64,000 bases of DNA from Blastocatellia bacterium. GTDB lineage: Bacteria > Acidobacteriota > Blastocatellia > UBA7656. Positions 19,227 to 57,566 of this stretch are shown one piece after another. The translations under genes and the position numbers were made by a program. The stretch spans positions 1,200-65,199 of the forward strand of contig JBJMGU010000271.1 of assembly GCA_045807765.1 (NCBI GenBank), in the 5' to 3' direction. Numbering within the stretch: position 1 is the stretch's first letter; each line of letters opens with the position of its first letter. The notes beneath the pieces are model-generated. The model did no database searches. It was not told where the DNA came from and worked only from the letters and a program-made list of their open reading frames with translations.

Positions 19227-21458
19227 TCACTCTCTGGCCGAAGTATCTGTGATAGAGGTATTCGGGCGGCTGTATTGAAAATGCGTGGCGTCGCCGTCGC
19301 CGCCCCAACTGAAATCGAACTCGCGGAGAACCGGCACCAGCTCAAGGATGGAGCCGCGCTGGCCGAGCGGCATGGCGTGCTGGCCGGGCTGATTGTATTG
19401 GCGATTGAGGTCGAAGCCAATGCCGAGCGCGTGCGTCGAAGGACCGCCGCCCTGGCCACGCTTGAAGTTGAGGATCAGCGGATCGTCAGGCCGCACAAAG
19501 CCGTAATCCCAGGTCAGGACGCGGTCCAGCAAGCCGCGCGCTTTGATCGCCCGGAACGCCTGCTGCAACTGCGCCGCCGCTATGCGATTGAACTTGATCG
19601 TGCTGTCGTACGGCTGATCGATCTCGCGCAGCTCCGGCACATTAACATCAATGAGGTTACGTTCAATCCAATTGTCGTAAAACTCCATGCGGCCATCGGC
19701 GAGGCGGCGCAATTTAATGTCGCCGACAATCGGGTGCGGATAGGTGACTTCGTCGCCTCGGAAATAGTCGTCAGCAATGTCGAGCAGTTTCTCGTTCTGG
19801 CGACCCAGCGATTCTTCTTGTTGCAAGCGCTCCTCGACGACCTTGTCGCGCTGTTGTTCGACGACGTGCAGGAGCTGGTCTTTGTGCTCGGCCTCGCGCG
19901 CCAGGTTATAGTTTTTAACCAGCGTATAAGCGCCCGCCGAGCCGATCAACAGCAACGGCACGAGGATATAAAAGGTCATCACTAGGTAGCGATGGCGGCG
20001 GCGGCTGATGTCGAGAAAGCTCATCGCCGCAGCAAAATCTTCGTTGTAACGCGCCGCCCACGCTGCCGTCGGCTGCTTCTGCGCCTGCCATTCGAGCGCG
20101 TAGCCGAGCTGCGGATTGCGCCACGGCTTCGAGCGCCCCTCGCGGTAGAGCAGCGCGGCGTCAACGATGCGCAGGTAAATCTTGCGCGATTCGGCTTCGA
20201 GGTTGACCCAGTCGCCGAGCCGTGTCCACTGGCGGATCAAGCTCTCGTGCGAGATGTCTATGGTCACGTCGCCGGTCAACTTGTCTTCGTAGAGGTTGAC
20301 GAAGTTGCGCCGATTCGAGCGGAAGCGCTCGATGATGGCAAGCAGTGGCGGGCGCGCTGCTCCGGTAATGGCTTCGATCTCGCTTAGACGCGCCGGGCGG
20401 CGGATGCGGCGGCCCCGCGCGTCTGTGTCGGTGAGCGCCTGGAACATGCGTTTGGTAATTCTTACCTCGTCGTCGTTCAAGCCGGCGAGGGCCGCCTCGG
20501 CATCTTTCGACAACGCCTCCTTGATGGTGCCGATGTTCTCGTAATGTGTCAGATCAATCGCGCCTTCGCGCGTGCGTTGCCAGTCTTCCCATGTGCGCAT
20601 CAAGGCATGCTGCATGACCGGCAACTGGTCGGACTTATCGCCGGCGTCGTTCAGCACGCGGTCGAGCAGGCGCTGTGAGATGCTCGCGCCGAACAAGCGG
20701 ATCGGCCCTTCGATGGCTTCCTGCCGCTGGCGGCGCGTCAGGCGCGGCACCAGGTATTGACTCTGGTTCATGGCTTCCGGCAGGCCGAAGAAGTTGTCAC
20801 AGTCGCCGATGAAATCCGAGCGCATGGTGAGGACGACGAAGATCGCCAGCTCGCGCTGCGCCGCCAGCTCCAAGATCAGCGCCACGAACTCTTCGGCTTC
20901 GTTGCGCTTTACCGGATCGTCATCACGCAAGGCGAAGCGGAACAGCTCTTCAAACTGGTCAACCAGCAGCAGCAGGTTAGAGTCTTCATCGCCAAGCGCC
21001 TCTTGCAGGCGAGTGATGACGGCCTGCGCGCCTTCGCCGCGAACCGCTTCGACCAGGCTGTTGATGTTCGCCTTGCTGGCTTCGACCGAAGCGGCTTCGA
21101 GCAGCGCGACGGCCATGTTTTCAAGCGGCGCGTCGCCCGGCTTCATGGTGGCGACGTGCCAGAGGTCGCGTTCTTCGACCAGGAAGCCGGCCTTGAGCTT
21201 GGGGATCAACCCGGCGCGCACCAACGACGATTTGCCGCAGCCCGAGCTGCCGACGACCGCGAGAAAGCGGGTGGCGTGCAGCCTTTGCAGCAGCTCGATG
21301 GCCTGCTCGCGCCGCCCGAAAAAGAGCAAGCTCTCTTCGCTCTCGAACGGGCGCAGCCCGACAAATGGGTTCAGCGCCTCGGTGCCGGCATCGCTGCCTG
21401 CAAGCAACGCCGGCGTCTGCTTTAAAGATCTCGTCGTACGCTCCGGTCTCATAATCAT
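19227..21458 (-). CDS. Transmembrane STAND NTPase (nSTAND1-like) with a C-terminal VanY/peptidase-M15-like domain
   Basis: nSTAND1 signature NPFVGLRPFESEESLLFFGRREQ..RFLAVVGSSGCGKSSLVRAGL (Walker A) and LLLLVDQFEELF (Walker B). One TM helix YLVMTFYILVPLLLIGSAGAYTLV is preceded by RRRHR. A coiled-coil region follows, then M15/VanY-like motifs IAAAQLQQAFRAIKARGLLDRVLTWDYGF, STHALGIGFD (SxHxxGxxxD) and DATHFQY ([DE]xxH[FY]xY). Confidence 0.8.
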   Translation of the reverse strand: MIMRPERTTRSLKQTPALLAGSDAGTEALNPFVGLRPFESEESLLFFGRREQAIELLQRLHATRFLAVVGSSGCGKSSLVRAGLIPKLKAGFLVEERDLWHVATMKPGDAPLENMAVALLEAASVEASKANINSLVEAVRGEGAQAVITRLQEALGDEDSNLLLLVDQFEELFRFALRDDDPVKRNEAEEFVALILELAAQRELAIFVVLTMRSDFIGDCDNFFGLPEAMNQSQYLVPRLTRRQRQEAIEGPIRLFGASISQRLLDRVLNDAGDKSDQLPVMQHALMRTWEDWQRTREGAIDLTHYENIGTIKEALSKDAEAALAGLNDDEVRITKRMFQALTDTDARGRRIRRPARLSEIEAITGAARPPLLAIIERFRSNRRNFVNLYEDKLTGDVTIDISHESLIRQWTRLGDWVNLEAESRKIYLRIVDAALLYREGRSKPWRNPQLGYALEWQAQKQPTAAWAARYNEDFAAAMSFLDISRRRHRYLVMTFYILVPLLLIGSAGAYTLVKNYNLAREAEHKDQLLHVVEQQRDKVVEERLQQEESLGRQNEKLLDIADDYFRGDEVTYPHPIVGDIKLRRLADGRMEFYDNWIERNLIDVNVPELREIDQPYDSTIKFNRIAAAQLQQAFRAIKARGLLDRVLTWDYGFVRPDDPLILNFKRGQGGGPSTHALGIGFDLNRQYNQPGQHAMPLGQRGSILELVPVLREFDFSWGGDGDATHFQYSRPNTSITDTSARE

Positions 21459-21466
21459 CTAACGGC

Positions 21467-22984
21467 TCAAACCGCTTCGAGCAGCGGCTTGAGCGCCTGC
21501 GGGTTGCCGAGGTCAGCCGCGTCAAAGGTATAAACCGGGAACAGGCCGAGGCGGAAATCGCTGTCGACGCTCTTGCGCCGCGCGCCCGCATAAAAGACGC
21601 CGCAGGCTTTCAGCGGGCAGCCTTCGGTGATGGCGATCTCGACTGCCGCGCCGAGCCGCGCCCGCACCCATTCCGAAGTCACCGAGCCGAAGACGATGAT
21701 CAGCTTGGTCACCTGCTTCAAGCGCTCTTCAAGGATGCGAATGTTTTTGCGCGGGTCATCTTCTTCAGGGTTGATGTAGGGCTGCACGTTCTTGTCCGAC
21801 AGAAAGCGGATCAGGTCGAGGGCGTAGAGCTGATCTTTGAAGTGCGTATCAACCAGCGCCGCCATCGGCGCGGCATCGGCGGGCGGGCGGCGTTGCGCGG
21901 CTTCGATCTCGTCGAGGATTTCGCGCGGCAACTCGGCGGGCAGGCCGCGCAGGAATTTGTAGGTCGCCTCGCTGCGCTCGCCGTTCTCCAGGCGGTCGAG
22001 GAACTCTTTATACGTGCCGTCTTCAAGCGCCGCCAGATCAAGCGCTTTCGGCACCCAGATGAACTGCGAGCGCGCATGCTCAATGCTCAGCTCGACCTGG
22101 CGCTGGGCATAGGATTTCTCTTCGGCGTCTTCAATCTCGCGGCCCGGAAAGGTGTCGAGCAGATGCACAGCCAGATGCGCGCCGCTAATGGCAGCAATGG
22201 CGCGCTCTTCGTGTGCCGCGGCTTCGTAAGGCGGCGGCACATCGGCGATGACCCGTATGCCTTTGCTCTGTAGCTCGGCGGTGACGCGCCTGCGCAACGT
22301 GCGCAGCGAATCGGCGGTGTCGGCCAGAAAGACCGTGAAGGCGTCCGACGCCGGCGACGCGGCACTCGCGCCAGCGGCGGGCGCCGCCGTAACCGGCGCA
22401 GACGCGACCGACGGCGCCGCGGCGGGTAAGCTCTCTTTCATTGCGCAGAGCGTGCGATAAACCGCTTCGACGAGCTTGCGCATCTGCAATTGAAAAGGTT
22501 TCTCCTGCGGGTCTGCCGGGTAGCCGAAATCGTCCGGCGATTCCGCATCGTGAAACGGAAAGCCGCTCGTGCGCCCGAACTCGGTGGGCCATTCGCCGAA
22601 CGGGATGTTATTGAGCAGCACGTTAAAGATGCGCAGCCGGTCGCCGACCGCCAGCCCCGATGGCTCTTTGCCGGCCTTGGCCTCGAACAAGCGCAGCTCC
22701 TGTTTGCAGTAATCCGAGGCCAGATAACCGGACGAGTTGAGGGCGATGAAGATCGCTGAACTGTTGATGGCGTCTTCGATTGTCTTGTCGAAAAGCTGGC
22801 TGCCTTCGAGCGTCGGGTCTTGCCAGATTTTGACCGCGCCCATGCGCCCAACGCGCTTCGACATTTGCAGGTCGAGGTGTTCGCGAAACTGCGTCACCCA
22901 GCCATCGGCTGCATCAACCGCGGCGTTGTCAACGTGCGCGTAGCTGATAAAAATGTCGTGCTGAAAACCGGGTAAGTACCCCAT
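21467..22984 (-). CDS. TIR-domain protein; the C-terminal half has a second TIR-like/Rossmann-like region
   Basis: N-terminal TIR motifs HDIFISYAHVDN and SSAIFIALNSSGYLASDYCKQEL. ATG at 22984 has GGAGG 5 nt upstream (the longer ORF to 23032 would need a TTG start). Its stop is 8 nt before the STAND gene start. Confidence 0.8.
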   Translation of the reverse strand: MGYLPGFQHDIFISYAHVDNAAVDAADGWVTQFREHLDLQMSKRVGRMGAVKIWQDPTLEGSQLFDKTIEDAINSSAIFIALNSSGYLASDYCKQELRLFEAKAGKEPSGLAVGDRLRIFNVLLNNIPFGEWPTEFGRTSGFPFHDAESPDDFGYPADPQEKPFQLQMRKLVEAVYRTLCAMKESLPAAAPSVASAPVTAAPAAGASAASPASDAFTVFLADTADSLRTLRRRVTAELQSKGIRVIADVPPPYEAAAHEERAIAAISGAHLAVHLLDTFPGREIEDAEEKSYAQRQVELSIEHARSQFIWVPKALDLAALEDGTYKEFLDRLENGERSEATYKFLRGLPAELPREILDEIEAAQRRPPADAAPMAALVDTHFKDQLYALDLIRFLSDKNVQPYINPEEDDPRKNIRILEERLKQVTKLIIVFGSVTSEWVRARLGAAVEIAITEGCPLKACGVFYAGARRKSVDSDFRLGLFPVYTFDAADLGNPQALKPLLEAV

Positions 22985-23122
22985 CACGCCTCCGGTCGTG
23001 CGCAAGGTGGTTGGCTTGCGCAGCGTCTTCAACTTGTTGCTGGTAATCTGTTGAGTGCGGAGTAAGGGTAAGCGAAAACACTGATGAATGCAACGCGATC
23101 AGTAAAGCGGCGGCGTGGTGGC

Positions 23123-25422: not shown

Positions 25423-25604
25423 CGGCTCCAAGAAGTCTGTAAGAACTTTCCAATGATTTTCCAAGCCGATTGAAAGGACTTCCAACCCGCGCTTCGACTA
25501 CGGTCAGCCGTGAGATGAGCCGGTATCGGATGGACAAAGAGTACGGAAACTTGATGCCGCGCCCATTCTAGTCGAAAGCCTCGGTCAGCGAAAGGAGAAA
25601 CCCC

Positions 25605-42946: not shown

Positions 42947-43828
42947 TCATTGGACGCGGCGGCTGGCCTGCGGCAGCGCATGGCGCTGGAAGAACTCGAC
43001 CACGAGCGGCAGCGCCTCGGTCGGAAATTCGTGGCCGCCCGGATGCAGGTAAGTCGCCAGCTCGATCCCGTCGCTCCCCGGCTCAATTCTTAGATATCCT
43101 TTGCTGACCGCCCGCGCCGCTTCGGTATGCAGCACACGGCGCGCCAGCCCAACGCTTAACATCTGCCCTTCGTAAGGCACGAGCGGATCACGCTCGCCGG
43201 CGATGATGAAGAGGGAGCGCGGCTTAACCTGTTCGAGCAGCCGCCCGCCCTGTCCCGAAGCCGAGCAGAAAGCGGCGAACGGTTCGCCGCGCATTGCCCA
43301 TAAGACGTTCACAAAGCGCGCGCCGTTCGAGTGACCGAGCGCGTAGACGCGGCTCGGATCAACTTTGTAACGCCTTTCAATCTCGCCCTGCATCGCATCA
43401 ACAAAGCGCACGTCGCGGTCATTCATCTCGCCGGGATTCTTCTGCCAGCCATTGCGCTTGCCTTCCGGGTCGGTGATGCCGACGACGCCCGGCAACCCTT
43501 GCAGGTAAGCGACCGTGGCTTGCGGCCACAGCTCGTGCAGGCGCATGCGGCGCGCGACGAGCTGCGCGGTGCCGCCGTGGCCATGAAAGACCAGAACGAG
43601 CGGCGCGCCGCCCTGCGGCACGGGCGACGTGGCGGCAAAGACCAGCGCGGTGCGCGGCGCGCCGTCCACTGTGACCGTCAGGGTCGCCGCTTCACCGCGG
43701 GCGCTAACGAAACTCGCGGGATTGCGGCCCTGCCTTGCGGCGGCGTCCGAGCGCACGCCACAGCCGGCGGCGATCAACAATCCAATTATCAAGCTCAAGG
43801 CTACAACGGTTCGAGAGATGGCTCGCAT
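42947..43828 (-). CDS. Lipoprotein alpha/beta-hydrolase (esterase / PHB-depolymerase-like)
   Basis: Lipobox LLIAAGC. Oxyanion-hole region LVFHGHGG; nucleophile elbow GHSNGA. Confidence 0.75.
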   Translation of the reverse strand: MRAISRTVVALSLIIGLLIAAGCGVRSDAAARQGRNPASFVSARGEAATLTVTVDGAPRTALVFAATSPVPQGGAPLVLVFHGHGGTAQLVARRMRLHELWPQATVAYLQGLPGVVGITDPEGKRNGWQKNPGEMNDRDVRFVDAMQGEIERRYKVDPSRVYALGHSNGARFVNVLWAMRGEPFAAFCSASGQGGRLLEQVKPRSLFIIAGERDPLVPYEGQMLSVGLARRVLHTEAARAVSKGYLRIEPGSDGIELATYLHPGGHEFPTEALPLVVEFFQRHALPQASRRVQ

Positions 43829-44083
43829 GGCATATCCTTTCTACCTTTCATCGGCTGGCGCTGCTTTATTCGGCGCCGTTTCTTTAGACAGTCGCCGGCC
43901 CGCGAAAGTCGTGATAGTTATTTGAAAAGCCGTGCGCCGCGCCCGCCGCTTGCCGCTGATTTTTCGCCGCCGACCGCGCTTGACAAGCCGCGCCGGGTAC
44001 ACGATGCTAATTGTTTGGCTAAGGGCGATAATTTCCGCCCAGTGCGCATCACGAACTTATCAGAACTCATAGGAGACTGTCAG

Positions 44084-46858
<2,775 letters not shown>

Positions 46859-46918
46859 ACAGAGTTTGACAATATTGAGCCTGACGGCGGTGAGTTTGCG
46901 AGCGTTTCGTTTAGCATC

Positions 46919-49900
46919 TCACCGCCCTTTCTTCTTGTGCTTACCCTTTCTTTGCTTGCTAGTCGGGGGTATCCGAAAACCCGGCATCTTTCTCAAAAGT
47001 TCCTGCCTCTGCTCTCTAACCCTTTCGTAACTCGGATGGTCACTGGGAAGCCCCCGAAAGTAATCCTCAATAGTCTGCCGTGCTTCGAGGCGGCGATTTA
47101 GCTGAAAAAGAGAGTACATCACACCCACTACAGAATTAGCCGTATCAGGATGATGCTCTCCAAGTAAATCTCTGCGAATCTCCAGCCCCTTCTGCAGAAA
47201 CTCTAGTGCCCGCTTGTGGTCGCCGAGAGCGCTATAGGTACTACCAACGTTGTTGAACGACAAGGCGGTGTCAGGATGCTTGTCGCCGAACAGCTCCTGG
47301 CGAATCTCCAGCGCCCTTTGTTTAAGCTCCAGCGCCCGCTTGTGATCGCCGAGATCGCCATAAGTGCCGCCGACGTTGTCGAATGATGTGGCGGTGTCAG
47401 GATGCCTGTCGCCAAACAGCTCCTGGCGAATCTCCAGCGCTTTCTGCAGAAATTCCAGTGCGCGCTTGTGATCGCCGAGCTTACCATAACTGCTGCCAAC
47501 GTTGTTGAATGACGCGGCAGTGTCAGGATGCTTGTCGCCAAATAGCTTCTGCTGAATCTCCAGCGCTTTCTGCAGAAATTCCAGTGCGCGCTTGTGATCG
47601 CCGAGCTTACCATAACTGCTGCCAACGTTGTTGAATGACGCGGCAGTGTCAGGATGCTTGTCGCCAAACAGCTCCTGGCGAATCTCCAGCGCCTTCTGCT
47701 GAAACTCCAGCGCCCGCTTGTAATCGCCCAAAGCGGAATAACTAAAGCCAAGATCGTTTAATATATGTGCTTTCAACGCCAAATCGCTGATATTGCTTTG
47801 TTCGAAGGCTGCCCATGCTTTTTCAAGCTGCGTACGAACATCGTGGTAGCGTCCGTGATGATACGACGGATATGCTTGTAGCCACATCAAATGACTTTCG
47901 TATTTCGGCGCATATGCTGAGGCATGTTGCTCCCACGCTTGCAGGTGGTCAATCTCGCTCTCAAAAAACGGTAATTGATTGAACTCTACTCGCTTATCTT
48001 CAAACCATTTTGCCATCCGCTCACAGATTGTAGCTATCCAACTCTCCTGGCCTTTTAGTGGAACATCTTCACGCCGAACTTCGCGCACGAGCCGGTGAAT
48101 GGCATAGCTTTCTGCGGCAAGGGTCTTTTGTAGCAACCGAAGTGCAGTGCCGAGACTCAACGCGCCAGTCAATTCAGCCGGATTCGGAATATCAAGTAGT
48201 GCGCACATCAAAGATAAGCTCATCGGTGCGGAACCGCTCCACGTCAATAAATTCAGAATGTCGCGTAGTAACGGCTCGTCTTGAAAAATCCCCTCGTTGA
48301 TCTTTAGCGTCGAGTAAATGTCTTTTTCATGCTTGGTGAAGCTGCCCAGGAATTTGCCCGAAAGGGCCGCTTTGACGTTCTGTTGTAGAAGTTCCAGGTA
48401 CTGTCGCCAGGGTAGTTGCCGATAGCGGACGTAGGCCCCTGCCAGTTCAAGCGCCAGTGGGAGGCCATCTAACATTCCGGCGATTTCCCTTGCCGCTCGC
48501 GCTTCGTCTTCTCCGGCGGGCGTTTGCTCACGTCCCGCTTCCTGTAACAATAGCTTGAGCGAAAGCTCATGATCTAATAGCTTCAGTTGAACAGGCTTGA
48601 ATCCTGGTTGCTCAAGCCGGCTTGTGATGAGAATGTGGGGGCTGGCTTGCGGCTCAGGCAAGTATGGTTCGATGGCATTGGTCGCTTCAACGTTATCGAA
48701 CACCAGCAGACAATCCGAGTAAGTGCGTATACGTTGCAGGGCAATCTCCAGCTTATATTTATGCTCGGATTCCGGTGCAACCCACCGGGCTTTCTCGGCA
48801 ATGTGGATCAATTGCGAATCAATATCCTGGTCTGCATTCACCCAGATGACACCATTGGGGTATTCATTCTGAAAGCGATACGTATACTCGACGGCGAGTT
48901 GAGTCTTACCTAACCCGCCTAGCCCTTGAAACGCGGCGGTCTGGCCGATCACCGTGCGGCGGCCATTGGTGAGCTGCTCGCGCACTGCCAAAATGGTTTC
49001 CTCGCGTCCAACCACCTGAGTGCCCTTTTGCGGAAAAGGAACGTAGAAGACTGGATTGCGGGGATCGTAGGATGCGATTGGCTGACTACGAGGCGGATCG
49101 GTTTGCTCTGGCTCTGGTTTTTTTCTTGCTGGACCTGCTGCGGCAGCAACCCTGCTCAACTCACGTACTCCCTCTAGCAGCGGTAAGCCGTAATCCGCAA
49201 CCGTGACTGGCTCTACTGGCAGAGCCAATCTCTGTATATTCTCGCGCTCGGCGGCGCGAGTCAGAACGTAATGCGGGCCGGTTGTGCCATTGAAGATGTC
49301 GCTGATGCCGCGCAATTGCACACCGAAATAGGCATCATCGAGGCTGAAGCCGATAAACAAGAATGTGTGCGAGGCCATCAATTGATGCAATGTTGCCAGA
49401 GCTGCCCGGTAGCGGTGTTCAGCTTCTCCCACTTCAGGATAAAGCCGACGATAGCCATCAGGAGTTAGAATCAAATTCGTTGCGTTATGAATATAGCCAT
49501 GAAGATGCCAGACCGTTGGGTGATTTATCTCTCCGCGCAGTAAGCCACTCTGTTCAGCCGGAGCCTCAATGTCCCAAACCACCAGATCATCACGCTGAGG
49601 GCATGCCCAGTGCAGCACACGATCATAGTTGGTAGTAATAACAAGCTGGCTCCCTAATTGCCATACCGCTCTTGCTAGATCAAGACTGCTATCATCAGCG
49701 TCCTTGCTCCTGCGATCAAGATGCTCCTTAATGAACTGAAACCAAACCGGGCCTAATCCTTGCCGCGCCCGCCTTGCCGCATCGAGGTAATCAGGAGGCT
49801 CAATCTGCAATAGGCCACGCACTGTATTTGCATAAGGCGACTTCTTTTCTTCATCAAGCCGGTCTGCCGCTGCCTCAAGCAGATTCTTCCAACTAGGGAA

Positions 49901-50008
49901 AAGGCGCTCGCCATGCTTATCCTTGACGGCCATAGAAACGCCTGCACCAACAAAGGGAATCACTTTGCCTTCGCGAAGACGTTCACCCAATGTTCTTGGA
50001 ATATCCAT
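46919..50008 (-). CDS. STAND protein: N-terminal SIR2-like domain, NB-ARC-type NTPase and C-terminal TPR repeats (antiphage-STAND-like architecture)
   Basis: SIR2_2-like GKVIPFVGAGVS; P-loop GLGGLGKTQLAVEY; Walker B CLLVFDNVE. At least five 42-aa TPR units (ALEIRQELFGDKHPDTA...). The gene sits in a lower-GC island. Confidence 0.85.
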   Translation of the reverse strand: MDIPRTLGERLREGKVIPFVGAGVSMAVKDKHGERLFPSWKNLLEAAADRLDEEKKSPYANTVRGLLQIEPPDYLDAARRARQGLGPVWFQFIKEHLDRRSKDADDSSLDLARAVWQLGSQLVITTNYDRVLHWACPQRDDLVVWDIEAPAEQSGLLRGEINHPTVWHLHGYIHNATNLILTPDGYRRLYPEVGEAEHRYRAALATLHQLMASHTFLFIGFSLDDAYFGVQLRGISDIFNGTTGPHYVLTRAAERENIQRLALPVEPVTVADYGLPLLEGVRELSRVAAAAGPARKKPEPEQTDPPRSQPIASYDPRNPVFYVPFPQKGTQVVGREETILAVREQLTNGRRTVIGQTAAFQGLGGLGKTQLAVEYTYRFQNEYPNGVIWVNADQDIDSQLIHIAEKARWVAPESEHKYKLEIALQRIRTYSDCLLVFDNVEATNAIEPYLPEPQASPHILITSRLEQPGFKPVQLKLLDHELSLKLLLQEAGREQTPAGEDEARAAREIAGMLDGLPLALELAGAYVRYRQLPWRQYLELLQQNVKAALSGKFLGSFTKHEKDIYSTLKINEGIFQDEPLLRDILNLLTWSGSAPMSLSLMCALLDIPNPAELTGALSLGTALRLLQKTLAAESYAIHRLVREVRREDVPLKGQESWIATICERMAKWFEDKRVEFNQLPFFESEIDHLQAWEQHASAYAPKYESHLMWLQAYPSYHHGRYHDVRTQLEKAWAAFEQSNISDLALKAHILNDLGFSYSALGDYKRALEFQQKALEIRQELFGDKHPDTAASFNNVGSSYGKLGDHKRALEFLQKALEIQQKLFGDKHPDTAASFNNVGSSYGKLGDHKRALEFLQKALEIRQELFGDRHPDTATSFDNVGGTYGDLGDHKRALELKQRALEIRQELFGDKHPDTALSFNNVGSTYSALGDHKRALEFLQKGLEIRRDLLGEHHPDTANSVVGVMYSLFQLNRRLEARQTIEDYFRGLPSDHPSYERVREQRQELLRKMPGFRIPPTSKQRKGKHKKKGR
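47160..47770. repeat. 126-bp tandem DNA repeats (about 5 copies; copies at 47453-47578 and 47579-47704 near-identical) encoding the TPR units of the STAND protein
   Basis: cgcttgtg(g/a)tcgccgag recurs at 47202, 47327, 47453, 47579 and 47705. The two central copies differ at only about 8 positions. Confidence 0.8.
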
Positions 50009-50341
50009 TGCTCACTCCAACCCGGCAAACTTAATGGTGCTCGAACCTTTGACCTGTAAATAAGAGAAGGTAACAAATGCCACCTGAGTACAGGCGAAAT
50101 ATATCATTACCTTGCAGTTTATTCCTAGAACTGGTTTTAACTGAGTTGGCCGGTGCGCAACTTGTGATGCGATATATGGCTCTGCACTACATCTGACAAG
50201 TGTTATGGAAACCCTGAGCAAATTGGCATAGTGTCCGCTGATTATCTCGAAGGGATGGCCATTCGTGGTCACCCCGTTTTATTGACACGCCGCACCAGGC
50301 CGCAGATAATCTCGAACAAAATTAGTCTAAGGTGGTGCGGA

Positions 50342-50623
50342 ATGAGTAACGATCCTGACTTTGAACGCCGAATCGACAACCAGTTAGCGACAATCGCTGA
50401 GAATCAAGCACGCTTCGATGAGAAGATGGCTGTTATGCAAGAGGCCATCGCCGGTTTAATTCAGGTGGCGCGCATCCATGACGAGCAGATTGACCGCAAC
50501 AGCCAGCAGATCAAAGAAAACTCTGAGGCGATTAAAGAACTCAGGGAAGGCTTGAGAGATCAGCGGGAAAACATCAACGCCTTGATCCGCGTCGTGGAAG
50601 ATCACGTGACGAATCACCCGTAG
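50342..50623 (+). CDS. Small coiled-coil hypothetical protein (93 aa), divergent from the SIR2-STAND gene
   Basis: Start MSNDPDFERRIDNQLATIAENQARFDEK..., with AAGGTGG upstream. Heptad-like pattern. Lower GC. Confidence 0.5.
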   Translation: MSNDPDFERRIDNQLATIAENQARFDEKMAVMQEAIAGLIQVARIHDEQIDRNSQQIKENSEAIKELREGLRDQRENINALIRVVEDHVTNHP

Positions 50624-50851
50624 GAACGTGAAAGGATTCCAGTTGATTTACCGCCTCGGCGTGACGAGCTTGCGACGGCCTGAGCCGAAGCCGCTCACCA
50701 GCACGGCGCAAACCCTCGTCACACTCGAAACCATCCTCGGCCCATTGCAGGCGGCACTGCTCGCTCTGGCCATTCGCCGCAAGTTCATGCGCTGACCACA
50801 GGCTTTCAGGTATACTCACTCGCTCACACCATCAGGCAGAAGGTTGAAGCA

Positions 50852-51279: not shown

Positions 51280-52422
51280 TCAACAGATTCTCGGCAACTG
51301 CTCGCCGGCGAGCATGTCTACGATGCGTGTGCCGCCAAAGCCTGTGACCATCGCAACGATGCCTCTGGGCTCGGCCTTGACTTCGCCGATGATGCACGCC
51401 TCACGGCCATAGCGGCTGCTTGTCATCCGCGCTACCAGCGCGTCAGCAATCTCCCCGGCGACGATGGCGATTAACTTGCCTTCGTTGGCAACGTAGAGCG
51501 GATCGAGCCCCAATATCTCGCAAGCGCCTTTCACCTCTTCTCGCACAGGAATGCGATCTTCGTAAATCTGCACATAGACTTCAGAAGTGAGGGCGATCTC
51601 GTTCAGTGTCGTCGCCACGCCGCCGCGCGTCGGATCGCGCAGACAATGAATCCCGTCAAGAAGCTCGGCGCGGGCGGCCTCATCGAGCATATCGCCGACC
51701 AGCGAGCCGAGCGGCGCGCAATCGCTTTCGATGTCGGTTTCAAGCTCAAGCTCACCGCGCGCAATCATGATCGTCGTGCCATGATCGCCAACCGTACCGC
51801 TGAGAATCACCTTATCGCCGGGACGGGCGCGCGCCGCAGAGATGGTGACGGGCGACTCGATAACGCCGATGCCCGCCGTGTTAATAAATATCTTGTCGGC
51901 GCTGCCTTTCTGCACGACTTTGGTGTCGCCGGTGACGATCTGTATGCCCGCTTCGGCGCTAGCTTCACGCATGGATTGCAAGATGCGCTTCAGGTCTGCG
52001 ATGGCAAACCCTTCTTCAAGAATAAAGCCGGCGGATAGATAAAGCGGGCGCGCGCCGCTCATTGCCAGGTCATTGACCGTGCCGTTGACGGCGAGCTTGC
52101 CGATGTCGCCTCCTGGAAAGAAGATCGGATCAACCACAAATGAATCGGTAGTGAACGCTAGCTTCATAGGTTGCCGAGCGGCAGTAAGCTCCGCCGCCGT
52201 CACGCCGCCGGTCTGTGGAACTTCAAAGACCGCCTGGTCTTCGAGCCGCTCTAGCAAAGGGTTTCTCAAGTACTCAAGGAACAGTCCCTCGACCAGCTCA
52301 TGCATCGCTTTGCCGCCGCTGCCATGAGCCAGCGTAATGTGTGTTTCTCTGATCCGGACTTTTCTTCGCCTTGCTCTCTCGACTCTCGCAAAGAGAGGCG
52401 ATGCGGTGAATTCTTCAGTCAT
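51280..52422 (-). CDS. hypE: Hydrogenase maturation factor HypE
   Basis: AIR-synthase-like fold. Motif HGSGGKAMHELVEG and the C-terminal PRIC tail characteristic of HypE. Confidence 0.9.
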   Translation of the reverse strand: MTEEFTASPLFARVERARRRKVRIRETHITLAHGSGGKAMHELVEGLFLEYLRNPLLERLEDQAVFEVPQTGGVTAAELTAARQPMKLAFTTDSFVVDPIFFPGGDIGKLAVNGTVNDLAMSGARPLYLSAGFILEEGFAIADLKRILQSMREASAEAGIQIVTGDTKVVQKGSADKIFINTAGIGVIESPVTISAARARPGDKVILSGTVGDHGTTIMIARGELELETDIESDCAPLGSLVGDMLDEAARAELLDGIHCLRDPTRGGVATTLNEIALTSEVYVQIYEDRIPVREEVKGACEILGLDPLYVANEGKLIAIVAGEIADALVARMTSSRYGREACIIGEVKAEPRGIVAMVTGFGGTRIVDMLAGEQLPRIC

Positions 52423-52440
52423 AGCTCTATCCGCCGTGCG

Positions 52441-53568
52441 TTATGGCCGCGCTTGCAGGCCCGACCGTTCAGCAACTTTCGAGAGACGCCCGAAGTTGTA
52501 ATACGCCGCGCAAGCGCCTTCCGAAGAGACCATGCAGGAGCCGATAGGCGTCTCAGGTGTGCAGGCGGTGCCGAAGACTTTGCACTCCCAGGGCTTCTTC
52601 ACGCCCTTTAAAATCTCGCCGCACTGACAGGCCTTCGGATCGGCAATTTTCAATCCCGGCACGGCGAACTTCAACTCCGCATCAAACGCTGCGTACTTCT
52701 TCTGCAACTTCATGCCGCTGTGAGGAATCGAGCCCAGTCCACGCCACTCGAAATAATCGCGCGGCTCAAATACATCGAAGATCACTTCCAGCGCCTTGAC
52801 GTTGCCTTCGCGCAGGACGACGCGCGAATACTGATTCTCGACTTCCTTGCGGCCTTCGACCGCCTGTTTGACGATCATATAAACCGACTGCAAAATGTCG
52901 AGCGGCTCGAATCCTGACACCACGATGGGCTTGCCATAGTCGCGCGGCACGAAATCATAACAGCGGGTGCCGATGACCGTGCTGACGTGGCCTGGCCCCA
53001 GGAAGCCATCGAGCTTCAGGTCGGGCGAATCGAGCATCGCTTTGAGCGCCGGCACGATCATGATGTGGTTGCAGAAGACGCTAAAATTTTCGACGCCGTC
53101 TTTTGCCGCCTGCCTTATGGTCATGGCAGTTGACGGCGCGGTGGTCTCAAACCCGAGCGCCAGAAAGACGACCTGGCGGTCGGGATTCTTCTTGGCAATC
53201 TTCAAAGCATCAAGCGGCGAATAGACCATGCGCACGTCGGCGCCAGCGGCCTTGGCATCGAACAGGTTGGTGTTCGAGCCGGGCACGCGCATCATATCGC
53301 CGAATGTGGTGAAGATCACGCCCGGCTTCAAGGCCAGCGAGATCGAATCATCTGTTCGCCCCAGCGGAATAACGCACACAGGGCATCCCGGCCCATGAAT
53401 CATCTCGATGTTCGGCGGCAGCAAATCTTCAATGCCATACTTGAAGATCGTATGCGTGTGACCGCCGCAGACCTCCATCAGCTTGAGCGGCTCGTCGGTC
53501 AACTGCGCAATCTGATCGGCGAGCCGGCGGGCCAGTTCGCTCTGCCGGTATTCATCAACGAATTTCAT
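52441..53568 (-). CDS. hypD: Hydrogenase maturation factor HypD
   Basis: CGGHTHTIFKYGIEDLLP (CGxH motif), GPGCPVCV, and C-terminal Cys motifs. Confidence 0.9.
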   Translation of the reverse strand: MKFVDEYRQSELARRLADQIAQLTDEPLKLMEVCGGHTHTIFKYGIEDLLPPNIEMIHGPGCPVCVIPLGRTDDSISLALKPGVIFTTFGDMMRVPGSNTNLFDAKAAGADVRMVYSPLDALKIAKKNPDRQVVFLALGFETTAPSTAMTIRQAAKDGVENFSVFCNHIMIVPALKAMLDSPDLKLDGFLGPGHVSTVIGTRCYDFVPRDYGKPIVVSGFEPLDILQSVYMIVKQAVEGRKEVENQYSRVVLREGNVKALEVIFDVFEPRDYFEWRGLGSIPHSGMKLQKKYAAFDAELKFAVPGLKIADPKACQCGEILKGVKKPWECKVFGTACTPETPIGSCMVSSEGACAAYYNFGRLSKVAERSGLQARP

Positions 53569-53584
53569 TTGTGCCCCCCTGGTT

Positions 53585-54274
53585 TCAGCCTTCGACCATC
53601 GAGCGATGCTCTAAGTAGGTATGCACCATATCCCACATCGTGTGGTAGAGCGTAACGTGGCTTTCCTGTATGCGATGGATGCTCGAAGTCGGAACGGTCA
53701 AGCAGAAGTCCAGCCGCTCGCTTTCGTGCAGCCTGGCCATCTGTCCTCCATTACCGCCCGCATAAGCAATGGTGATCAGCTTCATCCGCCGCGCAGTTTC
53801 GAAAGCGTGCATTAAGTTTTCGGAGTTGCCACTGGTTGACAGCCCAAGCAGCAGATCACCTTCGCGTCCGAGCGCGATGATCTGCCGCGAGAAGACATCG
53901 GCAAACCCGACATCGTTCGAGACGGCTGTAACCATGGCCATGTCGTTGGTCAGGCAGATGGCCGGCAGCGCTTTGCGCCCGACCGTGATCGGGTGCATGA
54001 ACTCGACGGCGATGTGCTGCGCATCGGTCGCCGAGCCGCCGTTGCCGCAGACCAGCAGCTTGCCGCCGCGTTGAAAACTCCGGGCCATCGCCAGCGATGC
54101 GGCGAGGATGGCGTCGGCGTTGGCTTCAAAGAATTGCTGTTTGACCTCGGCGCTTTCGTGCGCCTTTTCAAGCAGCGAGAAGCGCAGCTCTTCCTGCAAG
54201 TCCTGCGGCTTCTTGTCGGCATCGTGCAGGAAGGGGTAAAACGAACGAGAAAAATCTTCTATCGTTTTTGCCAT
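53585..54274 (-). CDS. SIS-domain protein (GmhA/DiaA-like sugar-phosphate isomerase fold) embedded in the hyp operon
   Basis: SIS motifs KLLVCGNGGSATDAQHIAVEF and LLLGLSTSGNSEN. Confidence 0.8.
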   Translation of the reverse strand: MAKTIEDFSRSFYPFLHDADKKPQDLQEELRFSLLEKAHESAEVKQQFFEANADAILAASLAMARSFQRGGKLLVCGNGGSATDAQHIAVEFMHPITVGRKALPAICLTNDMAMVTAVSNDVGFADVFSRQIIALGREGDLLLGLSTSGNSENLMHAFETARRMKLITIAYAGGNGGQMARLHESERLDFCLTVPTSSIHRIQESHVTLYHTMWDMVHTYLEHRSMVEG

Positions 54275-54283
54275 GTCGCCACC

Positions 54284-54550
54284 CTACTGAATCGAGCCCT
54301 TGAACTGATTCATCTCCTCTTCATATGAACCCAGCTCTTCAAGCAGCCTGAGCGTTTCCCTGGCTTCTTTCTCGTCAATCTTGCTCATCGCGAAGCCGAC
54401 GTGAATCAACACGTAATCGCCGATGCGTGCGTCGTCACGGTCGAGCATGCCGATATTGACATTGCGCCGCACGCCTCCGACCTCGACTTTGGCGATCTGA
54501 TTTTCTTCGTCAACGATCTCGACGATCTTTCCAGGTATGGCAAGACACAT
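54284..54550 (-). CDS. hypC: Hydrogenase maturation factor HypC
   Basis: Begins MCLAIPGKIVEI (conserved MC(L/I)(A/G)IP N-terminus). 88 aa. Confidence 0.85.
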   Translation of the reverse strand: MCLAIPGKIVEIVDEENQIAKVEVGGVRRNVNIGMLDRDDARIGDYVLIHVGFAMSKIDEKEARETLRLLEELGSYEEEMNQFKGSIQ

Positions 54551-56848
54551 TTACAAAATCCTCCCCGCCAGCCATCGGGCGTTAGCGACCACCGCCTGGC
54601 CGAGCGAGATGCCGCCGTCGTTGGGCGGCACGCGATGATGGGTGAAGACCTCGAAGCCATCAGCCGTAAGCCTTCGGCAGGTCTGTTCGAGAAGAAACAT
54701 ATTTTGAAAGACGCCGCCCGACAGGACGACGCGATTGAGCCGGTGTTCGCCTCGCGCTTTGCACGCGACGAACGCAATCAAGCGGGCGACGCCGTGATGA
54801 AACTTTGCTGACACCGATGCCGGAGAAGCGCCGTCGAGCAAATCCGCGACCGCCTGTTGAATCACTGCGTCAGCTTTGATGATGTCGCCCGCCGTGTCGA
54901 ACTCATAGCCGGCGGTTGAATTGCGATCCGCTATCGCTTCCAGCTCAATCGCCGCCTGCCCTTCGAAGTTCACCACGTTGCGCAAACCGAGCAGGCTCGA
55001 CACCGCGTCAAAGAGCCTTCCCATGCTCGAAGTCTGCGGGCTGTTCGTGCCGCTTTCGGCCATGCGCTGAAGCGTCGTCCAACGGCGACGATCAAGCTGT
55101 TGCACAAACGGCAAATCCAGATTGAGGAATTCATTGCCCATTGTACGATGCAGGTAGATTGCCGCCATGCGCCAGGGTTCGCGGATGGCGCGCGCGCCGC
55201 CGGGCATCGGCACATAATCGAGATGCGCAATCCGTTCGGCGTTGACGAAGTCGGCGACAAAAAACTCGCCGCCCCAGAACCGGCCATCAGAGCCAAATCC
55301 AAGTCCATCCATCGCCACGCCGATCACCTGGTCTTGAATGCCGTTGTCGGCCATGCAGCTTGCGATGTGCGCGTGATGATGCGGCACGCCGACCTTGATG
55401 GCGATGTCGTCAAGCGCCAGCGCGTACTTGCTCGACAGGTATTCCGGGTGCAAGTCGTAGGCAATCATCTCAGGGTGAAGATTGAAGAGTTGCTTGAAGT
55501 GGGCGATGCCTTGCTCGTATGAGCGGAGCGTTTCGAGGTTTTCCAGGTCGCCGATATGATGACTGACAAACGCATAATTCTCATGCGTCAGGCAGAAGGT
55601 ATTCTTCAGCTCCGCCCCGCAGGCGAGAATCTCTTGTGCAAATCGAAACGCGCAGCGGAGAGGCGCGGGCGCATAACCGCGCGAGCGCCGCAAAATCATC
55701 GCGCGCCCATTGAACACGCGAGCGACTGAATCATCCGAACGCATGTGTATGCGCCGGTCGTGCAGCAAGAGCGCATCGGCGATCTTGCCGATGCGTCGGC
55801 CAGCGTCTTCGTCCTCGTAACAGATCGGCTCATCAGACAGGTTGCCACTGGTCATCACCAGCGGGCGCTCCAGACCATCGTGCAGCAGGTGATGCAGCGG
55901 CGAGTACGGCAACATGAAGCCGAGCGAGCGGACGCCGGGCGCAACCGCCGCTGGGATCGTTGAATCGGGCTTTCTTTCAAGCAAGACGACGGGACGCTGC
56001 GCCGACCGCAGCAACGCCGCTTCAGCCTCGGATACGAAGCAATGTTCCAAAAGCAAATCTATTGAAGCGGCCATCAAAGCGAAGGGCTTATCTTCGCGGT
56101 ATTTTCTTTGTCGCAAGCGCGCCACCGCTTCCGCGTTCAGCCCGTCGCAGGCGAGATGAAAGCCGCCGATGCCTTTGATGGCGACAATCTGTCCGGCGAG
56201 TAACCGGGCGCGTGTCCTCGCGATGGCGTCTTCACCGCTCGCCGCATCGCTAATGATTTCGTGTCCATTCTCATCGGCAAGAAAAACCCGCGGGCCGCAA
56301 GCCGGGCAAGCAGTCGGCTCGGCATGAAAGCGGCGGTCGAGCGGATTCTCGTACTCGGCGCGACAGGCCGCGCACATCACGAATTCCCACATCGTCGTCT
56401 TGTCGCGGTCATACGGCACGTCTTCGATGATCGTGAAGCGTGGGCCGCAGTTCGTGCAGTTGATGAACGGATAGCGGTAGCGACGATCCGCGGGGTCAAA
56501 CAATTCTTTGAGGCAATCATCGCAAGTTGCGATGTCTGCCGAGATGGGAATGAACTTCTCGCCGGCAGCGTCGCTCTCGACGATGCGGAAGTCGGCGTAG
56601 TTGGCAGGCGTCAGATGATCGCGGCGCTCGACCGATTCGATCACAGACAGTGGCGGCGGGCTTAATCTGATTTCGTCAATGAGCTGGCCGATGGCGTCGA
56701 TCTCGCCTTCAACGTCTATGAACACGCCTGTCGTGTTGTTCAGGACGCGGCCCTTGAGCGCCCGCCGCTGCGCCTGCGAGAAGATGAACGGGCGGAAGCC
56801 GACCCCCTGGACAATGCCCCGCACCAGTATTTGAACGCGCGCGTCCAT
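54551..56848 (-). CDS. hypF: Carbamoyltransferase HypF
   Basis: Acylphosphatase domain VRGIVQGVGFRPFIF; two CxxC...CxxC zinc fingers; YrdC and Kae1-like domains. Start chosen at MDARVQ. The ORF-track extension to 56947 overlaps hypB. Confidence 0.9.
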   Translation of the reverse strand: MDARVQILVRGIVQGVGFRPFIFSQAQRRALKGRVLNNTTGVFIDVEGEIDAIGQLIDEIRLSPPPLSVIESVERRDHLTPANYADFRIVESDAAGEKFIPISADIATCDDCLKELFDPADRRYRYPFINCTNCGPRFTIIEDVPYDRDKTTMWEFVMCAACRAEYENPLDRRFHAEPTACPACGPRVFLADENGHEIISDAASGEDAIARTRARLLAGQIVAIKGIGGFHLACDGLNAEAVARLRQRKYREDKPFALMAASIDLLLEHCFVSEAEAALLRSAQRPVVLLERKPDSTIPAAVAPGVRSLGFMLPYSPLHHLLHDGLERPLVMTSGNLSDEPICYEDEDAGRRIGKIADALLLHDRRIHMRSDDSVARVFNGRAMILRRSRGYAPAPLRCAFRFAQEILACGAELKNTFCLTHENYAFVSHHIGDLENLETLRSYEQGIAHFKQLFNLHPEMIAYDLHPEYLSSKYALALDDIAIKVGVPHHHAHIASCMADNGIQDQVIGVAMDGLGFGSDGRFWGGEFFVADFVNAERIAHLDYVPMPGGARAIREPWRMAAIYLHRTMGNEFLNLDLPFVQQLDRRRWTTLQRMAESGTNSPQTSSMGRLFDAVSSLLGLRNVVNFEGQAAIELEAIADRNSTAGYEFDTAGDIIKADAVIQQAVADLLDGASPASVSAKFHHGVARLIAFVACKARGEHRLNRVVLSGGVFQNMFLLEQTCRRLTADGFEVFTHHRVPPNDGGISLGQAVVANARWLAGRIL

Positions 56849-56864
56849 AATCTTAGTAAAGACC

Positions 56865-57566
56865 TTAGTAATGTGCGGCTCGCCCGCTGCGCGCTTCACC
56901 GCGCAACACAGCCAGGCGCGATTCGAGAAATTGCAAGAACGGCTCAAGTCCCGCGCCGGTCTTCGCCGAAGCTTCGAATACCTGCATGCCTGGACGAACC
57001 GCTTGAATGTTACGGTGCGCCGCCGCCGGATCGAATTCGACGGCCTGCGCCAGATCGATCTTCGTAATCAAGGCGATGTCCGCTGTGTTAAAGATCGTCG
57101 GGTACTTGAGCGGCTTGTCTTCACCTTCGGTCACAGACATCAGCACCAGCCGCAGGTCTTCGCCGAGGTCATAGCTCGACGGGCAAACCATATTGCCGAC
57201 GTTTTCGATGAACAGAATATCCAGGTCTTCCAGTTGCCAGCCGTCGAGCGCGCGCTCGACCATCGCGGCTTCAAGATGACAGACCGTGCCGGTGATGATC
57301 TGCCTGACCGGAGCCTGACTGCGTGCCAACCGCGCCGCGTCATTCTCGGTTGCAAGATCGCCGACCAGCGCCGCCACCGCGTACAACTCGCGAAGGCGCG
57401 TCAGCAGCTTTTCAAGAAACATGGTTTTGCCTGCACCGGGACTTGATACCAGGCTGACGACGTAGACGCCGGCTTCACGGAAACGTTCGCGCAACGAGCG
57501 GGCAAGCTGATCGTTTTGCTTCAGAACCTTTTGCCTGACTTCGACCAGACGTGGTGGCGTGCTCAT
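56865..57566 (-). CDS. hypB: Hydrogenase nickel-incorporation GTPase HypB
   Basis: P-loop SSPGAGKT; CobW/HypB G-domain, ~230 aa. Overlaps hypA by 4 nt. Confidence 0.9.
   Translation of the reverse strand: MSTPPRLVEVRQKVLKQNDQLARSLRERFREAGVYVVSLVSSPGAGKTMFLEKLLTRLRELYAVAALVGDLATENDAARLARSQAPVRQIITGTVCHLEAAMVERALDGWQLEDLDILFIENVGNMVCPSSYDLGEDLRLVLMSVTEGEDKPLKYPTIFNTADIALITKIDLAQAVEFDPAAAHRNIQAVRPGMQVFEASAKTGAGLEPFLQFLESRLAVLRGEARSGRAAHY

Follow-up and report, generated by a model that had tools for sequence, protein, structure and literature searches.

We analyzed a gene at 46919..50008 (reverse strand) in a 64,000-nucleotide stretch of a Blastocatellia bacterium genome (contig JBJMGU010000271.1, positions 1,200 to 65,199), which is called the window here. 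Judged by its sequence, it is an intact single gene for a bacterial immune-type protein that resembles receptors of the NLR type (nucleotide-binding, with leucine-rich repeats) and combines a predicted SIR2 NADase, an NB-ARC switch and a variable sensor of tetratricopeptide repeats (TPR). It is probably a stand-alone, one-gene immune or conflict receptor of the signal transduction ATPase with numerous domains (STAND) type, and its output would be the destruction of NAD+. The protein, itself uncharacterised, varies a kind of antiviral protein that is already known and brings no new principle. To a specialist it is unsurprising. The only SIR2-STAND proteins studied experimentally are of the nSTAND3 type (Avs5), and the family described here sets the same predicted NADase output under an NB-ARC module and an evolvable TPR array. 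The family is large and common in poorly studied soil phyla, and its recognition would correct the present annotation.

Gene model and domain architecture

An earlier note on this DNA had proposed an open reading frame (ORF) of 1029 aa with a SIR2-like domain, a P-loop NTPase and kinesin light chain (KLC)-type TPR. This was confirmed by Pfam and by the positions of the motifs quoted there, GKVIPFVGAGVS at residues 14-25 and GLGGLGKTQLAVEY at residues 362-375. The Pfam matches are SIR2_2 (residues 122-259, E 2.6e-22, 79.9 bits at a cut-off of 24.5), NB-ARC (residues 337-544, E 5.7e-12, 45.9 bits at a cut-off of 23.5) and TPR of the KLC type at residues ~745-990 (TPR_12, E 1.6e-79; TPR_10, E 1.4e-64). 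The annotated start is favoured by a GGAG 8-9 nt 5' of the ATG. M1 is nearly invariant in an alignment of 121 sequences, and the N-terminus MDIPRTL...GKVIPFVGAGVS is aligned from residue 1. An exact-sequence look-up of the 1029-aa protein returned no record. The parts of the gene are as follows.

46919..50008, reverse strand: complete coding sequence of the SIR2_2 - NB-ARC - TPR STAND/NLR-like protein, 1029 aa, ATG start (ORF list, Pfam, AlphaFold2 (AF2) model)
49139..50008, reverse strand: predicted SIR2_2 effector domain, residues 1-290 (Pfam, invariant residues, fold matches)
49034..49138, reverse strand: low-complexity disordered linker, residues 291-325 (predicted local distance difference test (pLDDT) <50 at 294-311)
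48059..49033, reverse strand: predicted NB-ARC (AP-ATPase clade) oligomerisation module, residues 326-650 (Pfam, invariant columns, profile search)
47771..48058, reverse strand: helical spacer and degenerate TPR-like cap, residues 651-746 (AF2 secondary structure; invariant H688 and W692)
47141..47770, reverse strand: five tandem 42-residue KLC-type TPR units, residues 747-956, presumed ligand sensor (Tandem Repeats Finder (TRF), Pfam, unit identities)
46922..47140, reverse strand: C-terminal capping helices (957-1015) and polybasic tail (1016-1029, TSKQRKGKHKKKGR; 46922-46963) (C-termini of homologues)

The full-length AF2 model has a mean pLDDT of 88.3. In a Foldseek search of the whole model against the PDB the best match was EfAvs5 (9jap; E 1.3e-13, 13% identity, template modelling (TM) score 0.24), followed by a Pyrococcus STAND-TPR protein (6mfv), PaAvs5 (9nc9) and then TPR domains of KLC.

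The SIR2 domain

The N-terminal domain is SIR2-like, as the earlier note had supposed. Besides the Pfam match, PADLOC and NCBIfam models for SIR2 proteins hit this part only (LmuA 4e-23, ThsA 2e-14, Dsr2 1e-7). It carries the Rossmann motif GAGVS (residues 21-25) and the motifs TTN127YD and WHLH170G. T125, N127, D129 and H170 are invariant across the 121 sequences. The predicted catalytic codons are 49628-49630 (N127) and 49499-49501 (H170), both on the reverse strand. In a residue-by-residue alignment, N127/H170 corresponded to N112/H152 of ThsA and N163/H206 of FAM118B. Mutation of these residues abolishes NADase activity in both proteins (bioRxiv 10.1101/2024.09.18.613514; PMC12700824).

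The AF2 model of the domain (pLDDT 84.6) gave FAM118B (TM 0.71, 21% identity), ThsA, DSR2, KomBC/HAM-SIR2 and EfAvs5 as top Foldseek matches in the PDB. Among the matches listed, 50 of 50 neighbours are immune NADases. FAM118B is the nearest solved SIR2 relative by sequence as well (family profile, E 1e-17). Only one Cys is found in residues 1-295, hence the domain lacks the Zn-ribbon of the deacylase sirtuins. Sequence and model together place it with the immune NADase sirtuins (SIR2_2/SIRim) and not with the deacetylases, and the protein is presumably an active NADase.

The NB-ARC module and the linker

The linker is the least conserved segment between orthologues. Its junction at about residue 300 is the point where relatives bear other effector domains. 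The NB-ARC module behind it contains the Walker A motif GLGGLGKT (residues 362-369, 48902-48925; context GLGGLGK368TQ) and the Walker B motif LLVFD438N (D438 codon 48695-48697; D438-N439 at 48692-48697, reverse strand). Further motifs of the nucleotide-binding oligomerisation domain (NOD) are TSR464, GLPLA (residues 515-519, 48452-48466) and an MHD-like IH638R (48095-48097). K368, D438 and GLPLA 515-519 are the same in all 121 sequences. One alignment (A1) has an invariant R464 and another (A4) a nearly invariant one, and for H638 it is the reverse. N439 is nearly invariant in the 121 sequences and invariant in a set of 34.

A profile built from the first 700 residues (SIR2 and NOD) of 34 family members was searched against the PDB. 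It matched AfsR (4e-14), NRC1 (1e-9) and Apaf-1 (3e-6) and also NRG1, ADR1, NRC2/3, ZAR1, Roq1 and Sr35. No Avs, NACHT or MalT structure was found at E ≤ 1. With all five motifs of the clade present, the NTPase is by its sequence features a genuine member of the NB-ARC clade.

The repeat sensor and the C-terminal tail

The TPR array is visible as a tandem repeat at the DNA level (TRF: 47174-47728, period 126 bp, 4.4 copies, 86% matches). The five units share a mean of 74% identity in protein, with one pair at 93%, and at the DNA level identity between units 2 and 3 is 95%. The best sequence matches of the sensor are KLC1 (E 1.5e-35; KLC2 is matched too) and the Podospora 42-residue-repeat protein 4y6c (E 2.4e-22). 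All features of a high-identity array of 42-aa KLC-type helix-turn-helix units (TPR_10/TPR_12) are present.

Among syntenic orthologues the TPR part is the most divergent one, with 84% identity in P0001 (nucleotide-binding domain 99%) and 60% in P0003 (nucleotide-binding domain 80%). The number of units also varies. P0001, an orthologue with 95% identity, is shorter by exactly two units (84 residues), and the orthologue at locus L038 has one unit more. Variability within the unit was computed over 559 units from 117 proteins, with positions of more than 3 bits of entropy taken as hypervariable. These are positions 2, 9, 10, 12, 13, 17, 24, 29 and 38; positions 1, 8, 15, 21, 27, 28, 36 and 39 are near-fixed and structural. 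Positions 2, 9, 10, 12 and 13 form a cluster of hypervariability in helix A. In the TPR analysis of Magliery and Regan the helix-A positions 2, 5, 9, 12 and 13 reportedly face the concave, ligand-binding side.

The protein ends in a polybasic tail (KQRKGKHKKKGR). At least 5 K/R within the last 15 residues occur in 105 of 120 homologues (P0001-P0120), often after PGFRxP. The tail is a signature of the family, for which membrane binding or nucleic-acid binding are possibilities.

Distribution and modularity of the family

A word-indexed search returned at least 777 proteins at E ≤ 1e-10. The best 120 of these homologues share one architecture, with 52-95% identity over residues 1-703. An exhaustive search of 50%-identity representatives gave 556 proteins at E ≤ 1e-30. 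The named sources are chiefly Acidobacteriota (Blastocatellia, Pyrinomonadaceae, Thermoanaerobaculia, Aminicenantes). Full-length members were also found in Binatia, Nitrospinia, Methylobacter, Marinomonas shanghaiensis DSL-35, Phenylobacterium, Acetothermia, Rhodothermales, Fimbriimonadaceae and Sulfuricurvum. The Marinomonas member (L036) comes from a cultured strain and has 42-43% identity. Over 700 residues the identity is 64% to a metagenome-assembled genome (MAG) of Binatia, 59% to a 'delta proteobacterium' MAG and 54% to Methylobacter, compared with 64% to the syntenic Blastocatellia locus L038. Such similar values across phyla and to a syntenic relative indicate horizontal spread. On this sequence evidence the family is patchily spread over many phyla.

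Distant full-length relatives are located on plasmids of Bacillus wiedmannii and B. mycoides (24-25% identity, residues 7-658 and 117-649). The one on the B. wiedmannii plasmid NZ_CP133559.1 (L167, 7974-11333) is WP_311230835.1, annotated as 'tetratricopeptide repeat protein', with 1119 aa and 24% identity over residues 7-658. This distant SIR2-NB-ARC relative adjoins XerS and a SocA antitoxin gene. As it comes from a culturable Bacillus, it may serve as an experimentally tractable model.

The effector position of the family is modular. Matches to the NB-ARC-TPR part without the SIR2 domain (the chassis, residues ~300-1029) were obtained at many loci with 41-61% identity. Ten of these loci were examined, and in all ten the ORF runs upstream into another N-terminal domain. 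Five of them carry Metallophos (calcineurin-like phosphoesterase), and the rest carry HD-CE, DUF4062, TIR_2, EAD1 or Rossmann domains. The chassis that bears these other domains is 44-61% identical. DUF4062 is described as a TIR-like NADase in a preprint (bioRxiv 10.64898/2026.05.01.722283). Conversely, proteins that differ in length and layout also bear the same SIR2 subtype (50-59% identity, residues 1-~295). Effector swapping on a constant NOD-sensor chassis is a hallmark by which defence-associated STAND clades are recognised (PMC12803255). The modular effector position seen in these sequences fits a receptor in immunity or conflict.

In 3 of 36 full-length homologues (L028, L051 and L082, with 42, 4 and 7 in-frame stops) the first 700 codons are broken by stops or frameshifts. 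These would be pseudogenes, or else errors in the assembly of the MAGs. A Phenylobacterium MAG (L030/L037) and an Aminicenantes MAG (L054/L085) each have two members of the family, or relatives of its chassis, on separate contigs, which suggests paralogous expansion.

Insertion site and base composition

46859..50851, no strand: insertion ('island') from the stop codon of the pyruvate phosphate dikinase (PPDK) gene to the start of the CxxCxxCC gene, ~4.0 kb here vs 110-270 bp at empty sites

The STAND gene is convergent with the PPDK gene, from which it is separated by a spacer of 60 nt. On the other side follow, in this order, an AT-rich leader, a divergent 93-aa coiled-coil ORF, a CxxCxxCC (PF03692) gene, hypE, hypD, a SIS-domain gene and hypF. 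A syntenic housekeeping context in relatives, which the earlier note had named as an argument against its own reading, is found only in part. The order CxxC gene - STAND gene - PPDK is kept in four Blastocatellia relatives (L001, L002, L003, L038), but two metagenomic loci (L087, L088; PPDK 81% identical) have an empty site, where the CxxC gene lies 110-270 bp past PPDK without a STAND gene, and outside the Blastocatellia lineage the flanks are unrelated. We therefore regard the gene as an accessory insertion and not as a housekeeping gene. The comparison of these loci points to an old insertion with presence/absence polymorphism at one chromosomal site. Neither flanking direct repeats nor an integrase or recombinase were found at the island ends, and the spacers of the empty sites are too diverged for an exact junction.

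PPDK is 97.5, 94, 91 and 82% identical in L002, L001, L003 and L038, as opposed to 82, 92, 75 and ~56% for the STAND protein. By these identities the STAND protein diverges more quickly than its flanks, and in a pattern incongruent with theirs.

No conserved partner gene was detected among 150 flanking proteins of 41 loci, where the commonest family occurs at most 4 times. The lack of a recurring flank family suggests that the gene works without a dedicated partner. The flank families that do recur are small toxin-antitoxin-type ones (DUF433, DUF5615, PhdYeFM), and HD domains, together with a few PADLOC candidate systems.

The region of 47-51 kb has a GC content of 0.52-0.53, compared with 0.595 for the window. 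With 0.545 the STAND gene shows the lowest GC content at third codon positions (GC3) of the 38 window ORFs of at least 150 aa (median 0.744, z = -3.2). Its orthologues in L001-L003 have a GC3 of 0.53-0.54, compared with 0.82-0.84 for PPDK. Across the family, 31 of 33 loci show a higher AT content in the gene than in its flanks, with a mean difference of 6.5 points in hosts of 27-71% GC. The earlier note had taken the low GC content as consistent with horizontal acquisition. The foreign-like composition is borne out by GC and GC3, but low GC is no proof of a recent transfer, since the orthologues share it as a family-wide trait. The general AT-richness fits a gene that is repeatedly moving between genomes or is weakly adapted in its codon usage.

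Proposed mode of action and alternative explanations

In the resting state the NB-ARC module would be ADP-bound and the protein closed. A protein of foreign origin, most likely from a phage, would be bound by the concave face of the 42-residue TPR array. As homology with Apaf-1, plant NLRs and Avs suggests, ligand binding would lift the auto-inhibition and allow ADP/ATP exchange at Walker A/B. The NB-ARC modules would then oligomerise, either to a ring as in Apaf-1 and NLRs or to a filament as in Avs5, ThsA and FAM118B, and thereby gather the SIR2 domains. The assembled SIR2 domains would hydrolyse NAD+ via N127/H170, and the infected cell would be arrested by abortive infection. The presumed function of the protein is an antiphage one. 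It could become a bacterial model for NB-ARC oligomers that activate enzymatic effectors and a test case for sensor change by gain and loss of repeats.

Several observations weigh against such a receptor. The search of IMG/VR viral contigs and GenBank phages yielded no relatives. The gene has been retained at one chromosomal site beside housekeeping genes in several Blastocatellia lineages, and a survey of the two neighbours on either side at the homologous loci showed sporadic defence and toxin-antitoxin genes but no clear defence-island enrichment (no statistical test was applied). The Walker B box reads hhhhDN in place of the DD of Apaf-1 and plant NLRs, so that ATP hydrolysis may be weak, slow or absent and the switch cycle may differ. 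In the literature we found no experimentally tested member of the family nor any other tested bacterial SIR2-NB-ARC protein. Finally, standard defence finders would probably miss the gene, because the PADLOC models match its SIR2 and TPR parts only.

The protein might also sense something other than phages, such as plasmids, injected toxins or non-kin cells (allorecognition), in the manner of fungal NB-ARC NLRs whose TPR, WD40 or ANK repeats are highly similar, with NAD+ depletion still as the output. We regard this as unlikely, though it has a number of points on its side. Near-identical 42-residue repeats with a polymorphic number of units are typical of fungal NLRs, and the Podospora protein 4y6c is among the best sensor matches. 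SIRim clade A contains fungal and animal SIR2-NACHT/NB-ARC-TPR/ANK architectures, soil Acidobacteriota of complex lifestyle frequently harbour the family, and giant RHS/teneurin-like toxin genes are located 5-7 kb away in L001 and L003. The missing phage-borne relatives would be in line with it as well. On the other hand, all characterised bacterial SIR2-effector systems and Avs proteins are antiphage, contact-dependent systems are not a conserved context at the loci, and the RHS gene is absent from the window. A cellular role outside defence, as an AfsR-like regulator or as an NAD-dependent protein-modifying enzyme for PPDK or hydrogenase maturation, is in our view quite improbable. The position next to PPDK is kept in the four relatives, hyp genes are adjacent in the window and at one distant homologue locus (L005/L012), and the best solved relative of the NOD is the transcriptional regulator AfsR. 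Yet Pfam reveals no DNA-binding domain, the gene is convergent with PPDK and forms no operon with it, and the site is empty in L087 and L088. Among the loci retrieved, just one further genome shows the adjacency to hyp genes, and its HypE is only 54% identical. The single Cys leaves no Zn-ribbon cysteines, the listed fold neighbours are all NADases, and the gene is a GC3 outlier. Exchange of the effector for nucleases, phosphoesterases and TIR is also ill-suited to a dedicated metabolic regulator.

Two further alternatives concern the naming of the protein. True membership in AVAST type 5 (Avs5) is highly improbable. The order of the parts, SIR2 (PF13289), STAND NTPase and helical repeats, is the same, and EfAvs5 and PaAvs5 are among the top matches of the whole model, but the NTPase is NB-ARC and not nSTAND3, no PADLOC Avs model and no sequence match to 9jap/9nc9 was obtained, and the structural match to EfAvs5 has the low identity and TM score given above. 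Least probable of all is a role as the TPR component of an FxSxx-COOH peptide-maturation system. Here the protein reaches 310.9 bits with NCBIfam NF040586 (FxSxx_TPR, equivalog, fxsT) at a cut-off of 300, and the FxSxx name is borne in NCBI by the homologues P0002 and P0019 and by plasmid-borne NB-ARC-TPR proteins (H8, H14). The best-scoring stretch of this match, however, is the generic NB-ARC portion (residues 326-668), which does not include the SIR2 domain. The neighbours (PPDK, 93-aa ORF, CxxCxxCC gene, hypE/D) include no gene for a radical-SAM/SPASM protein, an HEXXH peptidase or an FxSxx peptide, and no Fxs-type family recurs among the 150 flanking proteins. With no Fxs genes nearby, the name is an over-extension of a hidden Markov model that recognises mainly NB-ARC and TPR. 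PGAP would thus probably name the protein "FxSxx-COOH system TPR protein" wrongly, and NB-ARC-TPR proteins are probably over-annotated in this way systematically.

An immune or conflict receptor that destroys NAD+ remains the preferred explanation. We put forward only tentatively, and hold to be rather doubtful, that the family is the prokaryotic counterpart of the eukaryotic SIR2-type NLRs. The idea is based on the closest solved relatives, which are human FAM118B for the SIR2 domain, plant NLRs and Apaf-1 (besides bacterial AfsR) for the NOD, and KLC and Podospora repeats for the sensor. If it is true, an NB-ARC 'resistosome' ring and not an Avs5-type filament could activate a SIR2 NADase. 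Specificity would be diversified by unequal recombination of near-identical TPR units, a bacterial precedent for the repeat shuffling of fungal NLRs, and the polybasic tail could add localisation or nucleic-acid sensing, which is not known from Avs proteins.

Leader region and neighbouring genes

50009..50342, reverse strand: AT-rich 5' leader/promoter region, 46% GC (GC content, alignment with L001-L003)
~50067-50113, reverse strand: inverted repeat/hairpin (AAGGTAAT..CGCCTGTACTCAGGTGG..TTACCTT) followed by a T-rich tract, ~60-105 nt 5' of the STAND start
50343..50623, forward strand: divergent 93-aa coiled-coil ORF in a low-GC segment, with a near-consensus sigma-70-like promoter TTGACA-17-GATAAT at 50282-50310

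The hairpin is conserved in L001-L003. The consensus fold has 29 pairs without compensatory changes. The region also gave terminator-like matches; no Rfam family matched the leader. The hairpin could be an operator or a leader attenuator. An ORF of 86 aa within the leader (50012-50272, reverse strand) was rejected as a gene on comparison with L001-L003, where the indels have lengths not divisible by 3 and conservation is concentrated in a single block of non-coding appearance; by this alignment it is probably not a gene. The divergent 93-aa ORF has no Pfam or NCBIfam family. As a conserved partner it was discarded because it is kept only in L001 (86%) and L002 (76%), and it is an optional passenger.

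A hydrogenase-maturation cluster of hypE, hypD, a SIS-domain gene and hypF (51280-56947, reverse strand) adjoins the island. A hyp cluster is also found 2.4 kb from a 56%-identical homologue (L005/L012; L005 583-7581) in a 9.5-Mb Acidobacteriota genome. An association with hyp genes was rejected, as they are absent at all other fetched loci, and the adjacency is probably coincidence or local synteny.

The mechanically called PPDK ORF (43331-46858, forward strand; 1175 aa from GTG 43331) is ~250 codons longer than its orthologues of 923-924 aa. The true start is probably near 44084. The upstream part of this ORF overlaps a 293-aa ORF on the opposite strand (42947..43828). Beyond PPDK, giant (>2500 aa) BACON/PKD/teneurin-YD-shell/RHS-repeat proteins are encoded 5-7 kb away in L001 (19262-22838) and L003 (17933-22823), and they are absent from the window.

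A second STAND-type locus in the window, reported in the earlier note, is indeed present in the module 19227-25537.

19227..21458, reverse strand: nSTAND1 protein (PF20703, E 8e-94), 743 aa
23123..25537, reverse strand: Trans_reg_C and TPR protein, 804 aa

A TIR_2 gene of 521 aa lies at 21467..23032 (reverse strand), with the nSTAND1 gene directly downstream. The pair of TIR and nSTAND1 looks like a system of two genes for conflict or defence.

Comparison with known systems

Avs5 consists of SIR2 (PF13289), nSTAND3 (PF20720) and a TPR/Sel1 sensor that clusters with SAMD9 (PMC12931631; PMC12803255). It is an experimentally shown SIR2-STAND NADase, in which phage proteins trigger filaments and then NAD+ hydrolysis (PMC11897194; PMC12931631). 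Like Avs5, the protein of the window is a single polypeptide in which an N-terminal SIR2_2 domain (PF13289) is followed by a STAND NTPase in the middle and a helical-repeat sensor at the C-terminus. The logic of the catalytic Asn/His is shared, and the mode of action would be expected to lead likewise from a phage protein over oligomerisation to NAD+ hydrolysis. In contrast to Avs5, the NTPase belongs to the NB-ARC/AP-ATPase clade (no nSTAND3 match at E ≤ 0.01), 42-residue KLC-type TPR form a regular sensor array in place of an irregular SAMD9-like TPR/Sel1 domain, and the family has a polybasic C-terminal tail. Neither the single sequence (E ≤ 0.01) nor the family profile (E ≤ 1) showed similarity to the Avs5 structures 9jap/9nc9. 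None of the Avs models of PADLOC-DB 2.0.0 was matched at E ≤ 0.01; the only models matched were LmuA, ThsA, Dsr1/2, PDC-S25 and generic TPR. The term "Avs-like" of the earlier note is therefore apt for the logic and the overall fold, with EfAvs5 as the best match, but not for membership in Avs5 or the PADLOC Avs families.

With ThsA, DSR1/DSR2, LmuA-SIR2 and KomBC/HAM-SIR2 the protein shares the SIR2_2 fold and the catalytic residues, while the regulator here is an NB-ARC switch in cis. Thoeris ThsA was rejected, because only the SIR2 part matches, SLOG/STALD and a ThsB partner are missing and the nearest TIR gene is 24 kb off and paired with nSTAND1. Lamassu LmuA-SIR2 was rejected as well, with no LmuB/LmuC partner and no SMC gene nearby; the sole LmuB signal (14 bits, E 0.003) is a coiled-coil match in a 130-aa ORF. 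DSR1/DSR2 do not apply either, as the scores for Dsr2 (26.6 bits) and Dsr1 (14.4 bits) face cut-offs of 1400 and the DSR-type C-terminal domain is absent.

Apaf-1, the plant CNL/TNL/RNL receptors and Streptomyces AfsR have a NOD of the same clade, with Walker A, hhhhD, TSR, GLPL and the MHD-like His. The effector here is SIR2, whereas those NB-ARC proteins bear CARD, coiled-coil (CC), TIR, RPW8 or SARP DNA-binding domains. For a sensor the protein has TPR, like AfsR and fungal NLRs, and not the leucine-rich repeats (LRR) or WD40 of other NB-ARC proteins, and Walker B ends in DN instead of DD. SIRim clade A, the clade of FAM118B, reportedly includes fungal and animal SIR2-NACHT/NB-ARC-TPR/ANK proteins (bioRxiv 10.1101/2024.09.18.613514). 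These SIR2-NLRs have the same three-part layout as the window protein, which is bacterial. FAM118B itself has neither NOD nor repeats, unlike the window protein.

The AP-ATPase-TPR conflict systems of 'multicellular' bacteria (Kaur, Burroughs, Iyer, Aravind 2020/2021) likewise combine a STAND NTPase and fast-diversifying TPR with a swappable effector or effector-associated domain (EAD), and EAD1 was found on the chassis here. The same papers are the source of the FxSxx-COOH naming and name SIR2 for another system only. Their systems are multi-gene, ternary and EAD-coupled, whereas in the family of the window protein everything is contained in one gene with the effector fused.

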